DNA of 51,197 bases. Source: a virus. Its lineage: Duplodnaviria > Heunggongvirae > Uroviricota > Caudoviricetes. Of this stretch, positions 3,372 to 49,998 are shown one piece after another; position 1 is the stretch's first letter, and the number at the start of each line of letters is the position of its first letter. A program made the position numbers and the translations under genes. Below the pieces are notes generated by a model, which was not told the origin of the DNA, ran no database searches, and saw nothing but the letters and a program-made list of their open reading frames with translations. Location: the IMG/VR virus record IMGVR_UViG_3300005323_000039, positions 64,001-115,197 of that record. The stretch is one strand, 5' to 3'.

Positions 3372-3998
3372 ATGACAAAAAATATATTGGCTATCATGCT
3401 CGTAATGATAGCATCGATTGTTGGAATGGCTGTCGCACAGGACGGCTTTATCGAACAAAGTATATTTGATGGACCAACTGATTGGGGCATGAACAATCCT
3501 GATCTAGCTGTGGACACTGTGCCCGACATCACGGGAGATCTTTATGTGCCTGGCCCGGAAGGAGTCCCAACTGATACTGGATTTACTGGCGGAGAAGTTG
3601 CCTCAGTCGATGTAGATGTTGGATTTGATGCTTCAGATTCAAGCGAACAACTAGTCACTCTTGGCACAAACGATTACGGTATATACGCGGGTAGTTCTGC
3701 TGACTATGACAGTATCGATTATTGGGCTTCCGAAGACGAATCATACCAAACGTGGTTTGTAAAAGAGAATGGTGCAGAAGGTATGATTAACTACAATCAA
3801 GCAACTGATACAATCTATACGTCTCAATTGGATGGTAATGTTGCGGGCAGTGGAACGCCTGGATTTTATAATTCTGCAAGCTACACTCCATCGATTGGCT
3901 CGATCACAGGATGGCAAGGTTTCTCTTCTATGAGTTTCCCTACAATCGAAATATTTAGCAGTATGACTGGCTCGACTATTCTTGCGCCCAACATATAA
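3372..3998 (+). CDS. secreted acidic surface protein
   Basis: Signal peptide MTKNILAIMLVMIASIVGMAVA-QD; D/G/S/T-rich mature part; T-tract after stop. Confidence 0.75.
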   Translation: MTKNILAIMLVMIASIVGMAVAQDGFIEQSIFDGPTDWGMNNPDLAVDTVPDITGDLYVPGPEGVPTDTGFTGGEVASVDVDVGFDASDSSEQLVTLGTNDYGIYAGSSADYDSIDYWASEDESYQTWFVKENGAEGMINYNQATDTIYTSQLDGNVAGSGTPGFYNSASYTPSIGSITGWQGFSSMSFPTIEIFSSMTGSTILAPNI

Positions 3999-4020
3999 AG
4001 CACATATTTTTTAATTTTTT

Positions 4021-4296
4021 TTAATTTTTCCTGTTCTTTATCCCGATTACAGTGTATTTGCGGTCGGAGTCAGTCGAAATTGATAAAATATTTTCGTTGT
4101 TTATAAAGTATACTGACGTTATGCGTTGGTTCTGAAGCAACGCATGATCATTAAGGATCCAGTCAACTTTTCTAACGTCGCCCCAATACCCACTCGAATG
4201 ATAATTCAAGTATTCGAATGGACTCTTACCACACGTTTCTAATATTTTACATGCTCCGTTCGTTAGTATAATTTGACCCAATCTGAACAAGCACAT
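4021..4296 (-). CDS. small conserved mobile-element protein (LFxLGQI...H..G.WG family)
   Basis: LFRLGQIILTNGA...H SSGYWGDV...DW..ND.AL....RITSVY pattern common in phages and plasmids. Confidence 0.65.
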   Translation of the reverse strand: MCLFRLGQIILTNGACKILETCGKSPFEYLNYHSSGYWGDVRKVDWILNDHALLQNQRITSVYFINNENILSISTDSDRKYTVIGIKNRKN

Positions 4297-4380: not shown

Positions 4381-4530
4381 TGTCGTACATATCGTGGGTA
4401 GCAGCGTACTCGGCAAAGTTCGAATGTATGCCTTATGGGTGTTGTTGGTTAAATCTCCAACGCAAGGGCACTGACTCCATGATCCTACTGTTGCCCCTTA
4501 TTCGGTCCGTTCTAGATGGAATGTACGACA
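4381..4530 (-). ncRNA. candidate structured ncRNA directly 3' of tRNA-Gly
   Basis: Perfect 10-bp closing helix TGTCGTACAT/ATGTACGACA; internal 7-bp, 5-bp and 4-bp hairpins; a G-U pair favours the minus strand. Confidence 0.5.
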
Positions 4531-4603
4531 TGCGCTCGGAGAGATTCGAACTCTCGCCACCTGCTCGGCAAGCAGATATTCTACCAGACTATATTACGAG
4601 CGC
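4531..4603 (-). tRNA. tRNA-Gly(GCC)
   Basis: Acceptor GCGCTCG/CGAGCGC-A, anticodon arm TCTGC-TTGCCGA-GCAGG, T-arm GAGAG-TTCGAAT-CTCTC; CCA not encoded. Confidence 0.95.
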
Positions 4604-4627
4604 GCCAATTTACGCAAATTCTGTGAA

Positions 4628-4700
4628 TAGTCCTGCGAGGATTCGAACCTCGGTTGCTGAGTTCAAAGCCCAGTGTGATTGACCGCTACACTACAGGACT
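4628..4700 (-). tRNA. tRNA-Gln(TTG), archaeal type
   Basis: AGTCCTG/CAGGACT-A acceptor with A1-U72; anticodon arm CTGGG-CTTTGAA-CTCAG; T-arm CGAGG-TTCGAAT-CCTCG. Confidence 0.95.
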
Positions 4701-4713
4701 AATTGTTGTTAGT

Positions 4714-4929
4714 CTAATCATATAACACGATTGTTTCTACATTATATTTTGATACAAGGATTGTAAATGTCTCAATTGATTTAGTAATAGGATTTTCATA
4801 AGAACGTTCCACGATAAACATATCATGATCATCAATTGTTTTTGACCCTTTGTAAATTCCACATACTTCTTCACCAGATACCAATCCAAAGCAATATGAT
4901 TTTCCCCTTTCTAATTCATCTTTTGTCAT
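4714..4929 (-). CDS. hypothetical protein inside the tRNA cluster
   Basis: 71 aa, GAGGT ribosome-binding site upstream. Confidence 0.6.
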   Translation of the reverse strand: MTKDELERGKSYCFGLVSGEEVCGIYKGSKTIDDHDMFIVERSYENPITKSIETFTILVSKYNVETIVLYD

Positions 4930-4952
4930 GTCGTACCTCTTGTTAAGTTGAA

Positions 4953-5073
4953 AGAGTGGGCCAGATTTGCACTGGTCCGTGTACTTTGTTTTCTACCGTT
5001 TGTTTGAAACAAACGATCTATCACGCCCATGCTGCCTAGCTTTATGGGAATCGAACCCTGGACGCCACCACTC
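4953..5073 (-). ncRNA. tRNA-like RNA (acceptor-like stem and T-arm around a non-tRNA core)
   Basis: GAGTGG/CCACTC closing stem, T-arm CCAG-TGCAAAT-CTGG, internal CCCAT/ATGGG and CGTTTGTT/AACAAACG hairpins; no canonical anticodon arm. Confidence 0.5.
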
Positions 5074-5145: not shown

Positions 5146-5229
5146 TGCCAACAGCAGGGCTCGAACCTGCGACCCTCTACGGGACCAGATCTTGAGTCTG
5201 GCGCGTTCTTCCATCTTCGCTATGTTGGC
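5146..5229 (-). tRNA. tRNA-Leu(CAA)
   Basis: GCCAACA/TGTTGGC-A acceptor, CCAGA-CTCAAGA-TCTGG anticodon arm, long variable arm, T-arm GCAGG-TTCGAGC-CCTGC; BRE-TATA at about 5258-5275. Confidence 0.95.
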
Positions 5230-5239
5230 TTCACTCTAG

Positions 5240-5881
5240 TTATACATATAACGAATCTACTATATATACTTTGTTGTTTTCAATCATAGCGTATCTGAAT
5301 CGCGATTTGCTTACATCCAAAGGATTGTACGGATCTACCATGTACAGATTGCTCAAATCATGACTGGAGTATTTGAATAGGGGTGGAGTGTGGCCACAGA
5401 CTTGCAACAATTTGTCATACGGGGCAGCATGGTTCGGTCTATACCACAGAGGACTGTCGTCGTGCCAATGTTCTATCAGATCCATTCCATTCAGAGTTTT
5501 TACAATTTCTTCGATTGGAGTATCGCTTGGAACAAATGTTTCAGATAAACCAGCGTGCGTTATGAGGACTTGATCATGTATAGCGACTATTTTGAATTCA
5601 TTCTGGCGCTCCTCCAATTCATCGTACAGACTCCAGCTATATGGGTCCTGAGGCCCGATAAATTGTTTTAAGACTATAGCAGCTTCGTGATTGCCCCACA
5701 ACATTTCTGCTCCACTCTGACTCAATAGTTTCCAACACTCTATTGGGTTGCATCCAATATCGATAAAATCTCCAGCAAAAATCAATCTGTCGTTGTGTTT
5801 ATCGTAATGTGAATGTGATAGAACGTTCTGGATGAGGTGAGGTTGAGCGTGTGCATCAGCTAAAACAATACAACGTGCCAT
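5240..5881 (-). CDS. calcineurin-like metallophosphoesterase
   Basis: DAH, GDFID, GNHE, THAG and GHTP motifs. Confidence 0.9.
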   Translation of the reverse strand: MARCIVLADAHAQPHLIQNVLSHSHYDKHNDRLIFAGDFIDIGCNPIECWKLLSQSGAEMLWGNHEAAIVLKQFIGPQDPYSWSLYDELEERQNEFKIVAIHDQVLITHAGLSETFVPSDTPIEEIVKTLNGMDLIEHWHDDSPLWYRPNHAAPYDKLLQVCGHTPPLFKYSSHDLSNLYMVDPYNPLDVSKSRFRYAMIENNKVYIVDSLYV

Positions 5882-6321: not shown

Positions 6322-6401
6322 GAACCTTGCCTCACCTCGCCATACCACACCGTATCGAACCTATCCGAACCGAACCCAAACAAACCCAGTCGAACCACAT
6401 C
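6322..6401 (-). ncRNA. stand-alone GGY-NN pentamer array (array A; candidate guide RNA)
   Basis: 16 in-phase 5-nt units, 11 with GGY: gatGT ggtTC gacTG ggtTT gttTG ggtTC ggtTC ggaTA ggtTC gatAC ggtGT ggtAT ggcGA ggtGA ggcAA ggtTC; own promoter and T-tract. Confidence 0.85.
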
Positions 6402-6476: not shown

Positions 6477-7031
6477 ATGACTCTGATAAAATTGACTGCT
6501 TATAATGCATGGCGTCGTGGATTCATAACCGATGACCAATATGAAGTTTATCTTCAGCAAAATCCAGATCCAGAACAAGAAATTATAATAAATTACGATG
6601 AACATTTGCACGAAGTTTATCTTGCTGACGTACATGTGCTCAAACGAGATCCTAATGCTTATATCGACTTAGTTTTTTCACTTGACGGAGCTGGTGCAGA
6701 AATAGCTGACGCAAAGAAAGCATATGCCAGATGTAACGTTAGTGGTAGGATTATTAAAGCAACTGTTCTAGCGGATCAATCAGGTTCAATCGCAATTGAT
6801 GTCTGGAAGAAGACTACATATCCTCCAGCGGATGGCGAATCAATTACAGCAAGCGCCGTTCCAACAATCACAACCAACGTTAGTTCAGAGGATGCAACAT
6901 TGACAGGCTGGAACGTAATGGTCACAGCTGGAGATTACTTCATTGCTAACGTCGATTCTTGTACAACAATAACACATGCTGAACTCATTCTAACGATTGA
7001 ACCTGCTGTACAATATGTCCGGATCGTTTAG
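6477..7031 (+). CDS. virion protein (N-terminal RRGxIT module plus beta-sandwich)
   Basis: C-terminal domain paralogous to 7046-7864 (ADQSGSI..D.WK...YPP....SITA.AVPTI). Confidence 0.65.
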   Translation: MTLIKLTAYNAWRRGFITDDQYEVYLQQNPDPEQEIIINYDEHLHEVYLADVHVLKRDPNAYIDLVFSLDGAGAEIADAKKAYARCNVSGRIIKATVLADQSGSIAIDVWKKTTYPPADGESITASAVPTITTNVSSEDATLTGWNVMVTAGDYFIANVDSCTTITHAELILTIEPAVQYVRIV

Positions 7032-10209: not shown

Positions 10210-11826
10210 ATGACAGAAAAGATTTTAAATATTTCTGGACACGACGTATCAATAGACGAAAATTTTTCTAAAATATTAAACGCGTATAATTGGCACGTGT
10301 ATTCTCTTGGTACAGGTAAGAGAAAAGAGTATGCAGTGACAAAAGTTTTTGGCGTTACTGTATATATGCATCGTGTCATAATGGAAGAACATCTTGGTCG
10401 AAAGTTAGATCGTTCCGAAGAAATTGATCATATCGATGGAAATAGTCTAAACAACACAATAAAAAATTTACGTGTGTGTTCGCATAAAGAAAATACTTGC
10501 AACAAAAGTAAATTTTCTACATCGTCGTCAGAATATATGGGTGTTTATTACAATGATGCTTATGATGACCCATATCGTGCAAAAATAATGAAAGATGGAG
10601 AAAACATACACATAGGTGGGTTCAAAACACCAAAAGAAGCTGCCGAAGCTCGCGACATAGCATGCCTTATTCATTTTGGACAATTTGCTTGCCTCAATTT
10701 TGAACATGCACGTTCCGAATATTTACAGAAAATTAACGATGGATACAACCCGATACAACCAGCACGTGAAACAACGAGTAAATATAGGGGAGTTAGTCTG
10801 CAGGAAGGCAAGTGGGTTGCACGTGCAAACAACATTTATTTGGGAGTGTTTGATTCAGAGGAGTCGGCAGCAGCCCAACACGATTTAGCATACTTATATA
10901 TTAATGGAGATGTTAAAGAAGGCTTAAATTTTCCAGATAAAACGCCGCAATACATAAAGATGCTGGCGTCTGGCGTGATTCCTGTTCCAGAAAAACAATT
11001 ACCATCCACTGAATATATTGGTGTATCGTATAATAAGGATGCGTGTAAATTTGCTGCTTATGTTGGTAGCGGCGAAAATCGTGTATATTTGGGAATGTTT
11101 AGCACGGCAAAAGACGCAGCTGAAACACGTGATATGGCTGTAATCAAGCTTGGGATTAAGTCTGTTCTAAATTTTGTATCCAAAGAACGTGAATATAGAG
11201 AGAAATTGCGCAACGGATACAATCCAATACCCATTAAAGTTCCTAAATCTAGTAAATATGTTGGAGTTTGTTATACAGAAGGTTCGGATAAATGGATTGC
11301 GTACACACCCTTACCTAACGGAAAGCGTTTCAATATTGGTGCATTTGAAACAGAAGATGCTGCATATGAAGCATTATGTGACACAGAGAGACGTTTGACA
11401 CAATGGGAATATATCACAGATATTAAGCCACGTTCGAATTATCGTGGCGTCAAGAATCAACCTAACGGAAAATTTAACGCAGGCATTTATCACAATGGCG
11501 TGGATTATTCGTTAGGTTCGTACGTAACACCTGAAGAAGCGGCTCAAACATACGATATAGCAGTAATATATTTAGGTGCTGAACACTGGAAGCTCAACTT
11601 TCCAAACCTCACGAACGAATATCGCGCAAAATTGCAATCAGGCTACGTTCCGATTAAAGAAAAACGCACCAAGTCAAGCAAACACAAAGGCGTATCATAC
11701 CGAAAGGATAAGAAACGGTGGCACGCCTACACTCAAGTCGATGGCAAGCGCAAAAACCTTGGGTACTTTGGAACTGAACAAGAAGCAATCCAAGCATATG
11801 ATAAATATATAACAAACCAAAGTTAA
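10210..11826 (+). CDS. HNH homing endonuclease with six tandem AP2 domains
   Basis: MHRVIM...IDHIDGNSLNN..KNLR HNH; six S.Y.GV...W/F.A...LG.F.T.EEAA..D repeats. Confidence 0.9.
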   Translation: MTEKILNISGHDVSIDENFSKILNAYNWHVYSLGTGKRKEYAVTKVFGVTVYMHRVIMEEHLGRKLDRSEEIDHIDGNSLNNTIKNLRVCSHKENTCNKSKFSTSSSEYMGVYYNDAYDDPYRAKIMKDGENIHIGGFKTPKEAAEARDIACLIHFGQFACLNFEHARSEYLQKINDGYNPIQPARETTSKYRGVSLQEGKWVARANNIYLGVFDSEESAAAQHDLAYLYINGDVKEGLNFPDKTPQYIKMLASGVIPVPEKQLPSTEYIGVSYNKDACKFAAYVGSGENRVYLGMFSTAKDAAETRDMAVIKLGIKSVLNFVSKEREYREKLRNGYNPIPIKVPKSSKYVGVCYTEGSDKWIAYTPLPNGKRFNIGAFETEDAAYEALCDTERRLTQWEYITDIKPRSNYRGVKNQPNGKFNAGIYHNGVDYSLGSYVTPEEAAQTYDIAVIYLGAEHWKLNFPNLTNEYRAKLQSGYVPIKEKRTKSSKHKGVSYRKDKKRWHAYTQVDGKRKNLGYFGTEQEAIQAYDKYITNQS

Positions 11827-25253: not shown

Positions 25254-25757
25254 TCATTCGAATTTTGGTTTAATTGGTACTGAACTTACACCACTTTCAT
25301 GTCTACCAGACTTAGGAGATCGTAATGAATCGTACATTGTTTTTACAGTTCCAAGCATTCCACGTCTGACAGACAACTGTGCTCTGTCGGATTCCGGCAT
25401 CAAGTGTTCGATTCTGGACGCAATATTGCACGCTCTGAATCCTCTATCAGCGGCTCTGGCTGCCCTTGACCATTTGTTGTTTACGATGATTGTGGCATTT
25501 TTGCCACCAATCAATTCTATGCCATCTCCTTTGTAGCAATGATACTCGATTTCCATTTTGTACAATACACGACGCATTAAATCTTTTCCATCAGTATCCA
25601 TAACGATTTCAGTGTCGTTTTCGATTTGCTTGTACGATAGGAATTTGCCCATAGGCTTATCTGAAAAATATGTATGGAGTTTGACGTATTCCGCTGAAGG
25701 CATACGTCCTTTGCTCGTTTTTGATTTTTTAGATTTGGTCACTTTTTCACCAACCAA
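25254..25757 (-). CDS. basic accessory protein, possible winged-helix DNA binder
   Basis: Overlaps the RAMP gene stop; GKFLSYKQIENDT...LMRRVL..MEIEY.C..G.GIEL pattern. Confidence 0.55.
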   Translation of the reverse strand: MVGEKVTKSKKSKTSKGRMPSAEYVKLHTYFSDKPMGKFLSYKQIENDTEIVMDTDGKDLMRRVLYKMEIEYHCYKGDGIELIGGKNATIIVNNKWSRAARAADRGFRACNIASRIEHLMPESDRAQLSVRRGMLGTVKTMYDSLRSPKSGRHESGVSSVPIKPKFE

Positions 25758-26302
25758 TTAACGTTTTTGACAGAGAATCTTCCGAACCATCCACGTCTTT
25801 CTGGTCGAAACATTCCAATTCCAATAAACATACCACTAGTTTTGAGATGTTCGATGAAAACATCGCGTGTTATGACTTCATCGAATATGTTGTAGCGAAC
25901 TGTACCTTGCCATTTATCCACAACAGGAAAACATCTATATACTCGGGTGCTTCCACCGACCTTACCATCTGCAGGTACATAAAGCCAATTTGGACGCAAT
26001 CCATCCTTTTTCATGGGAAGTACCAGAGGATCTACGACCATTATTGCTGCATCGAACTTCTTCTTGAATGTTTTGTTTCGCTCACCGGGAACCTTCTTGC
26101 TCATGTATCCTGCAGCACCTTTGATCGAATTAGAAAACATTTCGGGTGGTATTATTACATTACCGTCGGAATCGTAGTGTGCACGATCTTGCCAATGAGT
26201 TTGTTCCCACTCTTCGAATGGCTTTGTTGCGTTCCCTGCATATTTTCCAAACTGCAAAGGTGTTGTACCTTCCAACAAACATTCAGCTATTATTTCTATC
26301 AT
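25739..26302 (-). CDS. Cas7/RAMP-like protein 2 (Vipr-like), linked to GAT-NN arrays
   Basis: N-terminal LEGTTPL strand, VIIPPEMFSNSIKGAA helix, C-terminal Gly loop GMFIGIGMFRPERRGWFGRFSV; alignable to 32831-33397. Confidence 0.75.
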   Translation of the reverse strand: MIEIIAECLLEGTTPLQFGKYAGNATKPFEEWEQTHWQDRAHYDSDGNVIIPPEMFSNSIKGAAGYMSKKVPGERNKTFKKKFDAAIMVVDPLVLPMKKDGLRPNWLYVPADGKVGGSTRVYRCFPVVDKWQGTVRYNIFDEVITRDVFIEHLKTSGMFIGIGMFRPERRGWFGRFSVKNVNWLVKK

Positions 26303-31620: not shown

Positions 31621-31637
31621 AAAGTGGAAAAATGGAG

Positions 31638-32015
31638 TTAGTGAGCAACTTGAGCCGCAGCTGCTAATATTTTGTTGATAACAACGTATTCGGGAGCGAG
31701 TATGGCAAGCATTGGGTCGTGTAAAGTTGACCATACAATTGATGCTATAATGGCATATGCAAAAAACGATCCAATGATACCAATGAATATTGCAATTATT
31801 GCAAAATCTCCATCATTTTCGCCTTCTTTCCACAGCCATTGCCACAAATATTTAACGGCAATTAACGTTATGACTAAAGACAAAGCGTTACAAGCAAGAC
31901 TAGCTGCTCCGTCCATTGCTGTGCCTCGAACGGCCACCTCATACGAATAGAGGGAGGCGTTCTGAGCTCCATTCAACAATCCGTTGAGTAATTCTAACTC
32001 CTGAGGATTCAACAT
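31638..32015 (-). CDS. membrane protein
   Basis: Two hydrophobic helices, LLAPEY-like end. Confidence 0.6.
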   Translation of the reverse strand: MLNPQELELLNGLLNGAQNASLYSYEVAVRGTAMDGAASLACNALSLVITLIAVKYLWQWLWKEGENDGDFAIIAIFIGIIGSFFAYAIIASIVWSTLHDPMLAILAPEYVVINKILAAAAQVAH

Positions 32016-32043
32016 ACAATCTACTCCATACTTTGTTTAACAT

Positions 32044-32724
32044 CTAACGATGGCAGTCAACCACGACTAATATGTCATCTGGTCTGCACGTCATGACTAA
32101 CTGGTAAAATTCTGACTGCCATTGTTCTTCTGGCTTGTACTCACCATGATGCCAGTTCTCGTGCCATACTCCACCCTTCAATACAGCGTATGTTGGATGC
32201 ACTTTGGCAGTTCTTTGTGCATACGATTCGCATGTGTCACCTTCCTGAATTCCAGACATGTCGCGAATTGATTGTACGGCTTCGTCAGAGTCGCCATGTC
32301 GTTCGATCATTTCACACCACATATCGTACGATTTGAGACAATCTTCATAGGATCTCTGGAGCATGGAATCCCAATCGATTAGGTCGAATGGAGCAAATGA
32401 ACTCTCTACAACAACCTTTGAAGGTAACTGGTCAATAGCTACTTCATCTGAGCCATTAGACGTCAATTGGAGGTTGCGTAACACTACAACCTTCGTTATA
32501 AAGTATCCACGATATCTGCCGCCTACTTCATACTCTGCCCACTTTCCGTTCGGATTATCGTAATAGATTTCACCATCATCATCCACAATTTTGCAACTTC
32601 TGGAGTCAAGTTTTGCTTCCTCGTTGTCCATGTTTGCTCCAAGTATCTCGAAAGGATGCATAACGTCTTCCAGAGTTTGTGTGCTGCTAGCTGGAATTAT
32701 TACAAGCACTGACGTATGAGTCAT
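32044..32724 (-). CDS. conserved phage protein of unknown function
   Basis: MTH.SVLVI, NPNGKW..Y.VGGR, YAVL..G.W.E, VVVDCH motifs. Confidence 0.75.
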   Translation of the reverse strand: MTHTSVLVIIPASSTQTLEDVMHPFEILGANMDNEEAKLDSRSCKIVDDDGEIYYDNPNGKWAEYEVGGRYRGYFITKVVVLRNLQLTSNGSDEVAIDQLPSKVVVESSFAPFDLIDWDSMLQRSYEDCLKSYDMWCEMIERHGDSDEAVQSIRDMSGIQEGDTCESYAQRTAKVHPTYAVLKGGVWHENWHHGEYKPEEQWQSEFYQLVMTCRPDDILVVVDCHR

Positions 32725-32830
32725 CTGAACACCTACTGCCTCTAATACGTATTAATGCTATTTATAGTTTGTTAAAGTCATAAACAGTTTGACCAAAAGT
32801 TATAAATAATAGAACTACGTTTCAAGTACG

Positions 32831-33397
32831 GTGATTTTGTTGAACACCCTTTCGAAACGTTTTAATGTAGGAATTCGCGGCACGCGCCCTCTTGTCATGC
32901 ATTCAACTCGCGTTATGATGCAAGAGAAATCTGGTCGCGGCGACAGAATGACTGCAGAACAAGAAGTTGAATTATCCTTGTATAAGGATTCATCTGGTAG
33001 TATAGTTGTTCCATCTGAATGCATATTGGCGTGTATGAAAGCTGCAGCAAGTGACTACAAAGTTCCTGGCAAAGGCAAAAAGACATTCAAACAATACACT
33101 GATTCAGGACTCGATATCGAACCAACGATGCCAATTCTTCAATCAGACGGATACGTAACGGATTTGCGTCCTGTTGTCGTACAGAAATCCAGAATTATAA
33201 GAGCTCGCCCCAAATTCGAAAATTGGTCTGTGGAATTTACAATCGTTGTAAATGATTCACTTTGGTTAGACAGCAGTGGTGGTGGCAGAGTTATACGCGA
33301 AATACTGGAATCTGCCGGAAAGTACAAAGGCTTGTTAGAAATGAGACCAAGATTTGGTCGTTTTGAAGTCACAAAATTCGAAGAATCTCCCGACTAA
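32831..33397 (+). CDS. Cas7/RAMP-like protein 1 (Vipr-like), linked to GGY-NN arrays
   Basis: IRGTRPLVMH, LYKDSSG.IVVPSECILACMKAAA, VPGKGKKTFK, RIIRARPKF.NW, AGKYKGLLEMRPRFGRFEV Gly loop; BRE-TATA at about 32792-32808. Confidence 0.8.
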   Translation: MILLNTLSKRFNVGIRGTRPLVMHSTRVMMQEKSGRGDRMTAEQEVELSLYKDSSGSIVVPSECILACMKAAASDYKVPGKGKKTFKQYTDSGLDIEPTMPILQSDGYVTDLRPVVVQKSRIIRARPKFENWSVEFTIVVNDSLWLDSSGGGRVIREILESAGKYKGLLEMRPRFGRFEVTKFEESPD

Positions 33398-33415
33398 AGG
33401 AGATCTAATCATTCT

Positions 33416-33440
33416 GGTTCGGTTTGGTAAGGTATGGCTT
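33416..33440 (+). repeat. short GGY-NN array B0 (5 units)
   Basis: ggtTC ggtTT ggtAA ggtAT ggcTT, 18 nt after the RAMP stop; contains the ATG of the next ORF. Confidence 0.8.
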
Positions 33441-33748
33441 CATTAGTCAGATGTTGTGAACCGACATCTCTAGAATTGATTGTTCGCGAGGCATTGAAGT
33501 CTCGCAACATTCAATTTTTGGAGCAAGTTCCCACGAGGTCTGGATTTGTGTTAGATTTTCTTGTTGGAGAACATCTAGTGATTGAAGTTGACGGTCCTTG
33601 CCATGACAGTAGCAAGAGTCGAAAAAGGGATCGTTTTAGAGATAGAATTTTGCGAAACGAAGGATATAAAGTATACAGAATGAATTATTCCACCATAAAC
33701 AATACTCAAAACTTTAATTCAACGTTAGATTTTATCCTCTCTGCATAA
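33434..33748 (+). CDS. DUF559/Vsr-like (EDxHD-type) endonuclease
   Basis: LE.IV..AL....I.F.EQ...GF.LDFL....LVIEVDGPCH...RD..RD..L...GY.V.R. Confidence 0.85.
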   Translation: MASLVRCCEPTSLELIVREALKSRNIQFLEQVPTRSGFVLDFLVGEHLVIEVDGPCHDSSKSRKRDRFRDRILRNEGYKVYRMNYSTINNTQNFNSTLDFILSA

Positions 33749-33759
33749 GAGAGATATCC

Positions 33760-33846
33760 GGTACGTTGCGGCGTGGTAGGTTGGGGTTTGGTATGGTGAG
33801 GTTCGGTGTGTTTCGGTTCGGTGTGGTAGGGTTTTAATATAACCTT
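33760..33846 (+). ncRNA. GGY-NN pentamer array B with terminal hairpin (candidate guide RNA)
   Basis: 15 units, 12 GGY: ggtAC gttGC ggcGT ggtAG gttGG ggtTT ggtAT ggtGA ggtTC ggtGT gttTC ggtTC ggtGT ggtAG ggtTT; hairpin AGGGTT/AACCTT then T-tract. Confidence 0.88.
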
Positions 33847-33901
33847 CGTTTTCCTTTTTTCTCATATTTATTTCATTCAAATTCATTTAGGAGGATTATT
33901 T

Positions 33902-35320
33902 TTGGACATAAGATCCATCGAAACGATAAAAAATGAATTAAAAAGTTATCAAATGAGTCATCATATACGGCTGAGAGATTACAACCCTCTGAGTGTTTTG
34001 TCAGTTCTCAATGAAACGCTGGCAATACAGATTCAACTACTCGAAGAGTCCATCGATTCTGAAGTTCAATCGATAAATCCGTTGACGGCGACCGGCGAGA
34101 ATCTTGACGCCGTGATAATTGACAGACTACCCGCAGGCAGACAAGCAGGCACTCAAGCGGTCGGAACAATTACCTTCCGACGGAATTTGCCCGCAGCCGC
34201 TGTCGTGACTATTCCTACAGGTACGCAGGCCATCGCACTAGCAGACAACGGAGATTATTTGTGGTTCGAAACAACTGCTGTAGGCTCTATAGGAATAGGC
34301 GATAGTAGTGTTGTAGTGGCTGCACGCTCAATGCGTACAGGATTGAATGGCAACATTCCCGCATATTCTATCACTAGATTACCAGTGAGTATTGATGGCG
34401 TGGATTTTGTGGAAAATATTGCCAGCTATACAGGAGGCACAGATGAAGAATCCGATGATGATTTACGTGCAAGATATATATACGCTGTGCTTGTGCCTGG
34501 CCGAGCCACCCAACAACTGATCGAACAACATCTAACGGATTTGGAAACTGTACTTGAAGCCCACACATATACGCGAGCTCCAGGGGACGTTGAAATTGTT
34601 GTAGACACGACTACAGGCATTGGTTCAACTGATACGGATGTTGCTGCATGTATTGAAGAAAATATTGCGGCGGGAGTAGTTGCACGTGGTGTATTGGGCG
34701 CAAGTATATCTGGCGGAATTAATGTAGAATTGTCCGTATGTGCCGGAGGATTTTTATACGTTAGGCCAACCGTTCATATTCTAGCCGAAGAATCAATGAC
34801 AATAACTTATACAGATCACCTAGCACGGTCGCGTACAGGAACGTGTACTATTCCAGCGGGAACGATTGCAGGAAGTGCTGTAATCGCTACACTACAAGAC
34901 CCGAATGATAGAGTTGTCGAAATAAATGGAATATCCTACGTCGGGACTTCAACATACGATTTGCTCATGGGCATGGGAACATATCCTTGCTTGTACGTCA
35001 CTCCACGCATGGTATCAACAAATGTTACTGTTGCAATTGTTGATACTGCAACGCCAGAAGTTGGTCTTGCTGCTAACATAGAATCCTCTCTAACAGATTT
35101 TCTAGATGCTTATACCATTGGCGAAGATTTAGAGTATAGTGACCTCGTAAAATATATTTTTGTCGATTATGCTACAGGCAGAGCATTTGATGGCATTGAT
35201 CAGATAACTTCATGCGTCGTGACAGGCAACAGCACAACGATAAGTTCGTTCGGCCAGATTATCAATTTGGACGAAGATCAGCGCATCGAGCCTGGCAGCA
35301 TCACGATAACAATAACATAG
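33902..35320 (+). CDS. baseplate J/gp47-like protein
   Basis: ATGENLD, AGTQAVG.ITF, TG..GNIPA, GG.DEESDDDLRARY motifs. Confidence 0.92.
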   Translation: MDIRSIETIKNELKSYQMSHHIRLRDYNPLSVLSVLNETLAIQIQLLEESIDSEVQSINPLTATGENLDAVIIDRLPAGRQAGTQAVGTITFRRNLPAAAVVTIPTGTQAIALADNGDYLWFETTAVGSIGIGDSSVVVAARSMRTGLNGNIPAYSITRLPVSIDGVDFVENIASYTGGTDEESDDDLRARYIYAVLVPGRATQQLIEQHLTDLETVLEAHTYTRAPGDVEIVVDTTTGIGSTDTDVAACIEENIAAGVVARGVLGASISGGINVELSVCAGGFLYVRPTVHILAEESMTITYTDHLARSRTGTCTIPAGTIAGSAVIATLQDPNDRVVEINGISYVGTSTYDLLMGMGTYPCLYVTPRMVSTNVTVAIVDTATPEVGLAANIESSLTDFLDAYTIGEDLEYSDLVKYIFVDYATGRAFDGIDQITSCVVTGNSTTISSFGQIINLDEDQRIEPGSITITIT

Positions 35321-47709: not shown

Positions 47710-49998
47710 TTGGCGTGGGCACGATTTTTTAGGAGAAAACATTACATGACTTTGCCTTACGTTAAAACCTCTGACGAACATACGTTGCCATGGGATCGAA
47801 ACGCAATTATATCAGAACTCATGAAAGATGTAGATTTTGCGCGTCATTTTTATCCTGCGATCAATTTCACACTAGAGGACGCGAAAAACGTTGCGAAACG
47901 TGCAGAACACCAAGTGATCAAGCTTGGAGAAGATCCAATTAGCTCTGACACAATACGAGGAATTGTCACTTCGATCCTTGTAAAGGACGGCCAATGTGAA
48001 TTGGCTAAAGCTGCGTCACGCGTTGGGATGCCTGCAAGGGAATTTTACGATGTAATAAAAGGAGGTTCTGATTATGACAACGCAAACTTAACACCATCTC
48101 CAGAGACATCCCATAAGATTGTAGCAGACAAGACCTCGAAAAATTGGTACAATCGAATGCTACCAAAAGAGTTAATTGAGAAACATTTATCAGGCGACCT
48201 TCATATTCACGACGAAGAGTACTTTGGGACTAGACCATTCTGTAAATCATGGGACCTTCGATACACTTTTTACTATGGGTTTAAGCCAGACGGCACAGGA
48301 CTTCAAGCGGTGGCAGCTGGCCCTGCCCAACATGCAACCGTTGCTATTTTGCAAGCAACAAAAGTAATGGGAATGGGACAAACTCAGAATTCCGGAGGAC
48401 AAGGATTGCTCCATGGCACAGTTTTCCTCGCTCCTTATATGGAAGGTAAATCTTACGAGGAAATTCATCAATTGTGCCAAATGATGGTGTACGAACTCAA
48501 CCAAATGTATGTATCGAGGGGAGGACAACCCTGCTTCAGCTCGATTAATCTGAATCCTGGAGTTCCTAAAATTCTAGAAAACGCTCCGATAGTATTTAAA
48601 GGCAAAGTGTGGGATGGAACGCATGGTACATCGCGTCGTACATACTCTGAATTTGAACGAGAAGTCCGATTAATGTTTAAAGCTTTTATGGAACTTTCCT
48701 TAAAGGGTGACTACCATGGTAGGTTGTTTCCGTTTCCGAAGGTAGAAGTAGCAATTGAAAAAAAGTTTGTTGACGAAGAAACTTGGAGTATTCCTTTAAT
48801 CGATTCCGAGATGACAAAAACTGCCCCTAGCTACAGAGAACTGTATGAAATGGCATTCGAAGTCGTATCTAAATACGGTACACTCTACTTCGATAATATG
48901 TTACCAGAATATCGTAAGGCAGAGGAGTCGGTGGCGTGCATGCAATGCTGTAGTTTTTCGTTTTCAACTTCACGCGACGAGGACTCATTGTTTGAAGATC
49001 GATTAAACTTTCGCAATGGAGAACATTTTGATTTGGGAGGCATGCAAGCTATCAGTATAAATCTCCCACGTCACGCGTACAAATCCGATCATAACGATGA
49101 ACAATTGATTCGGAACATTCTAAAAACAATGGATATCGCTACTGAAATATTCAAAATCAAGCGTCAAATGATAATCAATAATTCTGACAGACTCCAATTC
49201 CTAACGCAAACTCCAATAGACCCCAATACAGGAAAACTTGGATCTAAATACGTTGATTTCGATAACCTTGTGTATGAGATTGGAATTGTTGGACTAAACG
49301 AAATGGTACAATATCACGTAGGCAAAGAGTTACATGAGAGTCGAGATGCGGTTGAATTAGGTAAAAAGGTGCTCCAAGCAATGAGTATATATTGCAAAAC
49401 GTTAAGTAAAGAACACGGTATGAAAATCGTGCTTGCGCGTACACCTGCCGAAACTGTTAGCCAAAGGTTCGCTGTTTCTGACATGTTCCATACTGTGTAT
49501 GATAAAATGGCTACAAACATTGTTAAGGGTGACTATGTCACAGCGATTGGAAATGCTCACTCTACCCGAAATCTTCCAGTGTTCTACTCCAATGGATTTG
49601 CTCCATCAGTTGGAGCAGATATCAGTTTGTTTGAAAGGCTTGCATTGGAAAATGAATTTTGGCCTTTAATTGATGGTGGAGCAATCACCCACATATGGCT
49701 AGGAGAAGAGTCACCAAATCCAGTCGGATTAATGGACTTCGCCATGAACGTATTCAAGCACACGAACATTGGGTATGTGGCCTTCACTAAAGACATGACA
49801 CAGTGTTCCAACTGCAAAAAAATGCTAAATGGCATTCATACTCATTGTGAATCGTGTGGTTCAAACGACTTAGTAATATACTCCAGAATTACAGGATATT
49901 ATTCGGTTGTAGGCACTGTAAAGGATGGAGTAGTTCATGATAAATGGAATGCTGGCAAGATGGCAGAATTGAAGTCCAGAAAAAGGGTTAACCTTTAA
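47710..49998 (+). CDS. nrdD: anaerobic (class III) ribonucleoside-triphosphate reductase, archaeal type (likely start ATG 47746)
   Basis: ATP-cone-like N-terminus, HLSGDLHIHD, MQCC, INLPR, GIVGLNE, TPAE, Zn ribbon, glycyl-radical YSRITGYY. Confidence 0.97.
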   Translation: MAWARFFRRKHYMTLPYVKTSDEHTLPWDRNAIISELMKDVDFARHFYPAINFTLEDAKNVAKRAEHQVIKLGEDPISSDTIRGIVTSILVKDGQCELAKAASRVGMPAREFYDVIKGGSDYDNANLTPSPETSHKIVADKTSKNWYNRMLPKELIEKHLSGDLHIHDEEYFGTRPFCKSWDLRYTFYYGFKPDGTGLQAVAAGPAQHATVAILQATKVMGMGQTQNSGGQGLLHGTVFLAPYMEGKSYEEIHQLCQMMVYELNQMYVSRGGQPCFSSINLNPGVPKILENAPIVFKGKVWDGTHGTSRRTYSEFEREVRLMFKAFMELSLKGDYHGRLFPFPKVEVAIEKKFVDEETWSIPLIDSEMTKTAPSYRELYEMAFEVVSKYGTLYFDNMLPEYRKAEESVACMQCCSFSFSTSRDEDSLFEDRLNFRNGEHFDLGGMQAISINLPRHAYKSDHNDEQLIRNILKTMDIATEIFKIKRQMIINNSDRLQFLTQTPIDPNTGKLGSKYVDFDNLVYEIGIVGLNEMVQYHVGKELHESRDAVELGKKVLQAMSIYCKTLSKEHGMKIVLARTPAETVSQRFAVSDMFHTVYDKMATNIVKGDYVTAIGNAHSTRNLPVFYSNGFAPSVGADISLFERLALENEFWPLIDGGAITHIWLGEESPNPVGLMDFAMNVFKHTNIGYVAFTKDMTQCSNCKKMLNGIHTHCESCGSNDLVIYSRITGYYSVVGTVKDGVVHDKWNAGKMAELKSRKRVNL

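Follow-up and report, generated by a model that had tools for sequence, protein, structure and literature searches.

The closest described relatives of the locus analyzed here are the VIPR systems, which combine the RAMP protein Vipr with vrRNAs of 9–16 YNNGG repeats and an accessory vap gene, and which read DNA in an NN-skip-NN code; the main text of the preprint describes seven types and six vap genes (10.64898/2026.04.26.720920). Nucleases are stated in that main text only for types III and V, which are cell-borne and located in defence islands (10.64898/2026.04.26.720920). Related VIPR work is available in two further preprints (10.64898/2026.04.26.720927 and 10.64898/2026.10.15.759431). 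According to the main texts of the 2026 VIPR preprints, target destruction is proposed for the nuclease-bearing types, and the function of SUSP1 VIPR needs vap1; DUF559 and Vsr are not named in these main texts. The second relevant group is the EDxHD homing endonucleases, represented by I-Bth0305I with the catalytic residues E170, D196, H213, and D222 (PMC3239194).

We analyzed a window of 51,197 nt, i.e., the whole stretch of viral DNA under study. The carrier virus has a complete genome of 115,197 bp with terminal repeats, in which one DUF559 protein and two Viprs are encoded, the second Vipr having different neighbours. The vipr gene of the main locus (Vipr1) was recognized by its PHROG match (Table 1), and the profile of its clade matched the solved SUSP1 Vipr (36pp_D) over the full length with an E-value of 1.1e-16. 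The protein was 45–57% identical to the Viprs encoded in the cassettes of its relatives; further homologues, flanked by GGTNN arrays, were revealed by tblastn in Felixounavirus and Gordonia phages. With a Vipr RAMP homologue and GGY/NN arrays, the locus is a VIPR system. A pattern of five consecutive YNNGG units (25 nt) occurred four times in the window, always within GGY arrays, and in none of 100 shuffled sequences. Array A, being solitary, would need Vipr1 (and DUF559) in trans. The tail of the operon was not called by a consensus terminator scan, and scanning for promoters and terminators was generally uninformative.

Table 1. Features of the VIPR locus and related elements in the window (positions refer to the window).
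Feature	Position	Strand	Basis
Solo GGY array A	6322–6401	−	Array pattern
Segment of 2.28 kb with two minus-strand ORFs and the VIPR cassette, between the gp25-like gene and the baseplate J gene	31621–33901		Comparison with L123
vipr (Vipr1), 188-aa RAMP protein	32831–33397	+	phrog_4652, E 1.4e-21
Leader hairpin of array B0; its loop contains the vipr stop codon (33395–33397), and TCTAATC follows the hairpin	33382–33406	+	Fold
Array B0, five YNNGG units, the last holding the DUF559 start codon	33413–33437	+	Pattern count against shuffles
DUF559 gene, predicted Vsr-like EDxHD endonuclease of 104 aa, accessory gene of the cassette	33434–33748	+	Pfam PF04480, AF2 model
Leader hairpin of array B; its loop contains the DUF559 stop codon (33746–33748)	33737–33753	+	Fold
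Array B, 15 YNNGG units, vrRNA gene	33757–33831	+	Sequence
Tail: small hairpin (AGGGTT/AACCTT), then T-rich run; likely operon end	33828–33861	+	Sequence, fold
Baseplate J gene, core gene flanking the cassette	33902–35320	+	Pfam Baseplate_J, E 3.7e-20; phrog_6
Imperfect target-like site of array B in baseplate J, matching at 19/30 NN positions, with codon position 3 as the skipped base	34049–34092	−	Decoding

Several other genes of the window were inspected. The second Vipr homologue (25739–26302, minus strand) is distant from the clade, with 42.5 bits to the clade profile; the adjoining ORF of 167 aa (25254–25757, minus strand) had no Pfam match and is not a DUF559 gene. GAT/NN arrays were noted at this second locus in the first reading of the sequence, and non-canonical repeat triplets have been described (bioRxiv 10.64898/2026.10.21.760802). 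A 538-aa protein with an HNH_3 and two AP2 domains (10210–11826, plus strand) has the domain combination typical of free-standing homing endonucleases of phages; the virus is thus predicted to carry a conventional enzyme of this kind as well. The window further encodes an anaerobic ribonucleotide reductase NrdD with an ATP-cone (47710–49998, plus strand) and a calcineurin-like metallophosphoesterase (5240–5881, minus strand); such auxiliary genes are nothing unusual in a large virus whose habitat is anoxic.

An earlier note, made from the sequence alone, had described a 104-aa nuclease ORF starting inside array B0 and ending 11 nt before array B, and both statements proved accurate. The ATG lies within the fifth of the five YNNGG units, and the stop codon ends at 33748, while the GGYNN register of array B begins at 33760 (the first base of the array is 33757 in the YNNGG register and 33760 in the GGYNN register). 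Since an in-frame TAA is located upstream at 33428–33430, the ATG at 33434 is the sole start that retains the conserved DUF559 N-terminus.

The ORF matched Pfam PF04480 with an E-value of 6e-10 and 39.4 bits (cut-off 20.6) and the Pfam RAP family with 33.2 bits (cut-off 24.2); it also touched MTES_1575 and DUF2726, which, like RAP, are Vsr-like. In a search of the PDB, the family profile hit the catalytic domain of I-Bth0305I (3r3p) with an E-value of 3.6e-6 and also NGO0050 (3hrl). The AF2 model of the protein had a pLDDT of 87.8; the same catalytic domain (3r3p) was its top Foldseek match with TM values of 0.73–0.79, followed by RAP-domain proteins (mitoribosomes, FASTKD4), 3hrl, and Vsr (1cw0). 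Among the DUF559 proteins of 43 cassettes, pairwise identity between which falls to only about 25% in some cases, residues E14, D41, E51, D53, G54, and H57 were invariant, and D66 was retained in all but one (42/43). The equivalents of the EDxHD residues are E14, D41, H57, and D66, as mapped by alignment rather than by side-chain superposition. Judged by its sequence, the ORF encodes a catalytically intact, minimal DNA endonuclease of the Vsr/EDxHD type.

A separate DNA-binding domain is missing from this ORF, as the earlier note had claimed: it consists of the catalytic domain of about 100 aa alone, whereas I-Bth0305I carries an N-terminal NUMOD/HTH region. The same was true of all 43 cassette proteins, each about 90–150 aa long. 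A search for longer DUF559 forms or Vipr–DUF559 fusions found none, which is weak evidence. The gene of the window is a free-standing ORF of an operon, lying outside any group I intron or intein, and no intron family of Rfam matched its locus.

The co-occurrence of DUF559 genes with RAMP-pentamer loci, which the earlier note had put forward as a check, was strongly positive: in both directions of search, DUF559 was a near-obligate partner of this Vipr clade. On the Vipr side, metagenomes, IMG/VR, and GTDB genomes yielded 107 loci, which were searched for DUF559 with local HMMs. Loci were assigned to the clade if Vipr scored at least 179 bits and enough downstream DNA was available; distant Viprs scored 100 bits or less. 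DUF559 was encoded just 3′ of vipr and on the same strand in 43 of the 44 assessable non-redundant loci of the clade, and in 0 of about 43 loci with distant Viprs, which belong to other VIPR clades. The sole exception within the clade, L114, retains vipr and arrays, indicating that Vipr can stand alone. This locus (3465–4140 in the Thermoproteota MAG contig JAPDJY010000010.1) contains vipr, two arrays, and a tyrosine integrase gene on the opposite strand, and looks like an integrated archaeal element; its leader, GGAGATCTAATAC, is identical to that of the window.

On the DUF559 side, the search gave 32 homologues with 44–63% identity, all of about 100 aa. In each of the 11 homologue clusters examined, the gene came directly after vipr or what remains of it, and GGYNN arrays were present in its surroundings; one of these clusters was without DNA and was judged by a 195-aa gene upstream, and one (L158) had an internally deleted vipr. 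In L158 (2785–3000), the N- and C-terminal pieces of vipr are fused, and DUF559 and the arrays are intact. In L149 (4400–4991), located just 3′ of a baseplate J gene, vipr lacks the first 45 codons or so, and DUF559 and the arrays are likewise intact. Pairwise identities of Vipr and DUF559 were correlated, with r = 0.86 overall and 0.81 in the close group, and none of 2000 permutations reached values as high. A tblastn search with DUF559 found no match in 50,697 GenBank phage records, nor did blastn of the window locus against GenBank phages; the clade is known almost only from metagenomes. The 43/44 pairing together with the co-divergence indicates that DUF559 is a fixed accessory of this Vipr clade.

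For such a pair, the reading that we prefer, with a probability of about 0.55, is a division of labour in which the Vipr–vrRNA complex would give the address and DUF559 would cut; both the binding and the cutting are our inference. The system would exclude rivals and possibly support homing.

The position of the cassette was compared with that of its relatives. In the nearest relative, L123, whose J protein is 45% identical, the gp25-like gene (4513–4998) overlaps the start of J (4995) with no insert, while in the window a segment of 2.28 kb separates the two genes. The genes flanking the cassettes vary from locus to locus and include those for baseplate J, portal, Mu-F, DNA polymerase III alpha, PrimPol, clamp loader, radical SAM, gyrase B, thymidylate synthase, and capsid proteins. 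The filled and empty sites of L024 and L153 provide a stronger case than the comparison of the window with L123. Upstream, 941 nt of the two loci aligned with 91% identity; then L024 has an insert of 1424 nt (zinc-ribbon ORF, vipr, array, DUF559, array) in place of 94 nt in L153, and the alignment resumes 140 nt into the neighbouring gene, with 73% identity downstream. These comparisons show that the whole cassette is the mobile unit. The first 140 nt or so of the neighbouring gene of L024 (2226–2365) have diverged from L153 past detection by blastn, and this diverged tract reaches the start of the site of the guide (2337–2395). It looks like a co-conversion tract or an immunity tract.

An alternative to guided cutting is that DUF559 works autonomously, without guide RNA, either as a structure-specific or low-specificity nickase or as a homing endonuclease with a site of its own, and is merely linked to VIPR. 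Its task would be to mobilise the cassette, to maintain it, or to attack the DNA of the host or of rivals. The nearest solved relative is indeed part of a genuine homing endonuclease, namely its catalytic domain, which dimerises unaided when isolated, the homing-endonuclease model of PADLOC matches weakly, and the cassette is clearly mobile. The distribution of the family speaks for another role: 0 of the 43 members have a DNA-binding domain (the failure to find longer or fused forms adds weakly to this), DUF559 never occurred outside the vipr context in the 11 clusters and co-diverges with Vipr, and the 50,697 phage records of GenBank gave no match. We consider an autonomous nuclease unlikely.

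The arrangement of arrays and genes bears on two further alternatives. Each array has its own leader hairpin, with the stop codon of the preceding gene in the hairpin loop, and a hairpin of the B0 type with an A/T-rich motif also precedes arrays in L003, L011, L024, and L114. The separate leader hairpins imply that B0 and B are separate guide genes and not one array split by insertion. Among the 43 cassettes, arrays were placed in the gap between vipr and DUF559 in 20, 3′ of DUF559 in 25, and at both sites in 10; vipr and DUF559 abut or overlap in 15. In 12 of the 43 cassettes, the ATG of DUF559 is part of an in-phase Y-AT-GG unit at the end of an array, which suggests that the coating of the final guide unit by Vipr could mask the start codon of the nuclease. 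A small ORF (about 45 aa) encoding a zinc ribbon, CxxC-GY-W-YKGKS-YYATCPxC, was found directly 5′ of vipr in at least 13 cassettes (L024 (995–1132), L009, L016, L017, L021, L025, L030, L031, L036, L113, L114, L150, and L158) and may be a third gene of the cassette; it is absent from the window.

If DUF559 acted on RNA, it would process the vipr–vrRNA–DUF559–vrRNA transcript to guides, e.g., at the leader hairpins, in a Cas6-like manner. Such processing would be in line with a hairpin before each array, with arrays that abut or overlap the DUF559 ORF, and with the result of an Rfam search of 10 cassettes and of the window locus, in which neither a ribozyme nor any other family that could do the processing was detected. 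The Pfam RAP match above the cut-off and the structural similarity to RNA-binding RAP proteins (mitoribosomes, FASTKD4) also leave room for a role on RNA; however, the full EDxHD catalytic set of a DNA nuclease is invariant, VIPR clades free of DUF559 have arrays of the same kind, flanked by hairpins and with several guides, which mature without it, and the gene is retained even in cassettes that have only one array. An RNA-processing role is therefore distinctly unlikely in our opinion. The earlier note had offered the alternative that DUF559 is a parasite inserted into the array, in which case a selfish gene would recently have divided an older array in two. GGYNN units on both sides of the ORF and the ATG within a unit speak for this proposal. 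It can nevertheless be dismissed as highly improbable, since the hairpins of B0 and B are separate and each encloses the stop codon of the gene before it, an ATG in the last unit is also seen in about a quarter of the diverged cassettes (12/43), DUF559 is present in 43/44 members of the clade and co-diverges with Vipr, and the mobile unit is the whole cassette.

Guided cutting by a Vipr–DUF559 pair was further considered in the light of the guide targets. After decoding by the NN-x-NN rule, 67 arrays from 29 cassettes were each scored for matches in the locus to which they belong, all arrays being masked out. Matches with p ≤ 0.05 inside the locus were obtained for 8 of the 67 arrays (3.4 expected), three of them with p = 0.005. 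The skipped base fell on codon position 3 in all eight significant matches, compared with 27 of the 53 non-significant hits that served as the control; as the control itself amounts to 51%, this signal is weaker than a 1-in-3 null would imply. Six of the eight matches were located outside the cassette and within 650 nt of the array, against 18 of 59 in the control (binomial P 0.012). The target genes of the significant matches are neighbours of the cassettes and encode baseplate J (in the window), portal, DNA polymerase III alpha, clamp loader, and a 444-aa protein.

The site of array B in the baseplate J gene had p = 0.015 in the 9-kb neighbourhood. In the whole window it was the best local match on the minus strand, and 31 of 300 shuffles equalled it (about 0.1). 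For a Leu codon, the site has TTG where the guide expects CTN, one of the mismatches that may spare the carrier's own gene; the window also encodes a tRNA-Leu(CAA) (5146–5229, minus strand), which reads UUG, and a link between the two may be a coincidence. We failed to find a rival J allele for array B: the nearest J relatives are 45% identical or less, which is too distant for a test of them as targets. Seven exact matches to the 16-base core of array B in IMG/VR were rejected as chance hits because none was in a J-like gene and their frames were mixed. Array B0, with its five units, carries too little information to be decoded. For array A, the best match within 4 kb on either side (6573–6616, in the adjacent gene 6477–7031) was equalled in 43 of 100 shuffles.

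The 444-aa target gene has six relatives in IMG/VR with 58–72% identity, and vipr, DUF559, and arrays were absent from all six. The guide of L024 matched these cassette-free relatives at 28–30 of 40 positions and its own allele at 23 of 40. Similarly, the guide of L032 matched cassette-free relatives at 29–34 of 40 positions and its own allele at 27 of 40; in most of the relatives 12 consecutive units matched without a break, and in the own allele this run is broken. This comparison of self and non-self covers one lineage (L024 and L032), distinct from the window. A better match to non-self than to self has also been reported for type II VIPR, which is free of a nuclease (10.64898/2026.10.15.759431), and such an asymmetry therefore does not require a cutter.

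The earlier note had regarded the nuclease as a possible effector or an RNA-guided homing endonuclease. The co-occurrence, the co-divergence, and the guides favouring the neighbouring gene of cassette-free relatives all fit this suggestion; the targeting system itself, in turn, is not new but already known as VIPR. The locus without DUF559 (L114) and the only modestly significant match of array B in the window count against guided cutting.

The mechanism that we propose is as follows. The operon vipr–(vrRNA)–DUF559–(vrRNA) forms a compact mobile cassette beside a conserved core gene, in this case baseplate J. Vipr would polymerise on the GGYNN guide and find DNA by the NN-skip-NN code, as is known for VIPR. 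The outer guide would address the flanking gene in the form in which it occurs in related viruses, the carrier's allele being mismatched. DUF559, lacking a DNA-binding domain, would be brought to the site bound by Vipr or be activated there, and would nick or cut the target, so that co-infecting relatives would be crippled. As the cut would adjoin the cassette, its repair by recombination could leave the rival with a copy of the cassette, which amounts to homing.

The last step leads to a more far-reaching interpretation, which we put forward only tentatively, namely that the cassette is an RNA-guided homing element. Its filament would read the neighbouring core gene of cassette-free relatives while ignoring the wobble position, the nuclease would cut, and repair would copy the cassette; a few non-wobble changes would make the carrier immune. 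On this view, a solitary guide, e.g., array A, would amount to a minimal rider (about 150 bp) and home in trans by means of the same machinery.

VIPR was introduced in 2026 as an RNA-guided silencer carried by viruses. The locus defines a virus-borne Vipr clade with a Vsr-type nuclease of about 100 aa as a fixed partner. Provided that this nuclease is guided, the targets of viral VIPR can be destroyed in addition to being repressed, and the cassette would be the first homing-type element addressed by RNA. It would also be a very small programmable DNA cutter of two proteins (about 190 aa and about 100 aa) without a PAM. The asymmetry between self and non-self and the pair of filled and empty sites make the idea of guided cutting directly testable.

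Seg and Mob proteins are free-standing homing endonucleases of T4-like phages. The cassette resembles them in that it is inserted between conserved genes and has its site in the neighbouring core gene of insert-free relatives, with a diverged allele in the carrier. They differ from it in having a protein DNA-binding domain, in place of which a guide RNA–protein filament is proposed here, cleavage and homing by the cassette being inferred.

I-Bth0305I and the EDxHD homing endonucleases (PMC3239194; 3r3p) provide the best sequence and fold match to DUF559 and share with it the E, D, H, and D residues and the phage-borne location. I-Bth0305I, however, is about 266 aa long, has the N-terminal NUMOD/HTH region, and is encoded inside a group I intron, whereas the DUF559 protein of the window is a bare catalytic domain that is free-standing and always paired with an RNA-guided DNA binder. 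Vsr (1cw0, 1vsr) and the stand-alone DUF559 protein 3hrl share the fold and the catalytic motif; the protein of the window is 18–22% identical to them, lacks the N-terminal DNA-intercalating segment of Vsr, and lies outside a repair context.

The described VIPR systems (10.64898/2026.04.26.720920, 10.64898/2026.04.26.720927, 10.64898/2026.10.15.759431) have in common with the locus the Vipr RAMP homologue, the GGY/NN pentamer guides, the viral carrier, and a small accessory gene directly 3′ of vipr, which is the position of vap; in both, the guides are directed against relatives and the skipped base coincides with the wobble position. The accessory protein is different: here it is a predicted Vsr/EDxHD nuclease, while HNH is the nuclease domain given in the preprint legends, and the nuclease of type V is unnamed in the main text. 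Types III and V lie in cellular defence islands, in contrast to the complete virus analyzed here, in which the neighbours are virion and replication genes. The guides also differ in location, being placed here between vipr and the accessory gene and running into the start codon of the latter. Thus, VIPR as such is known, and what is new, when set against the main-text descriptions of the seven types (one of which the clade may overlap), is a virus-borne clade with an accessory protein of the Vsr/EDxHD type, with guides around and into its gene, and with a homing-like target logic.
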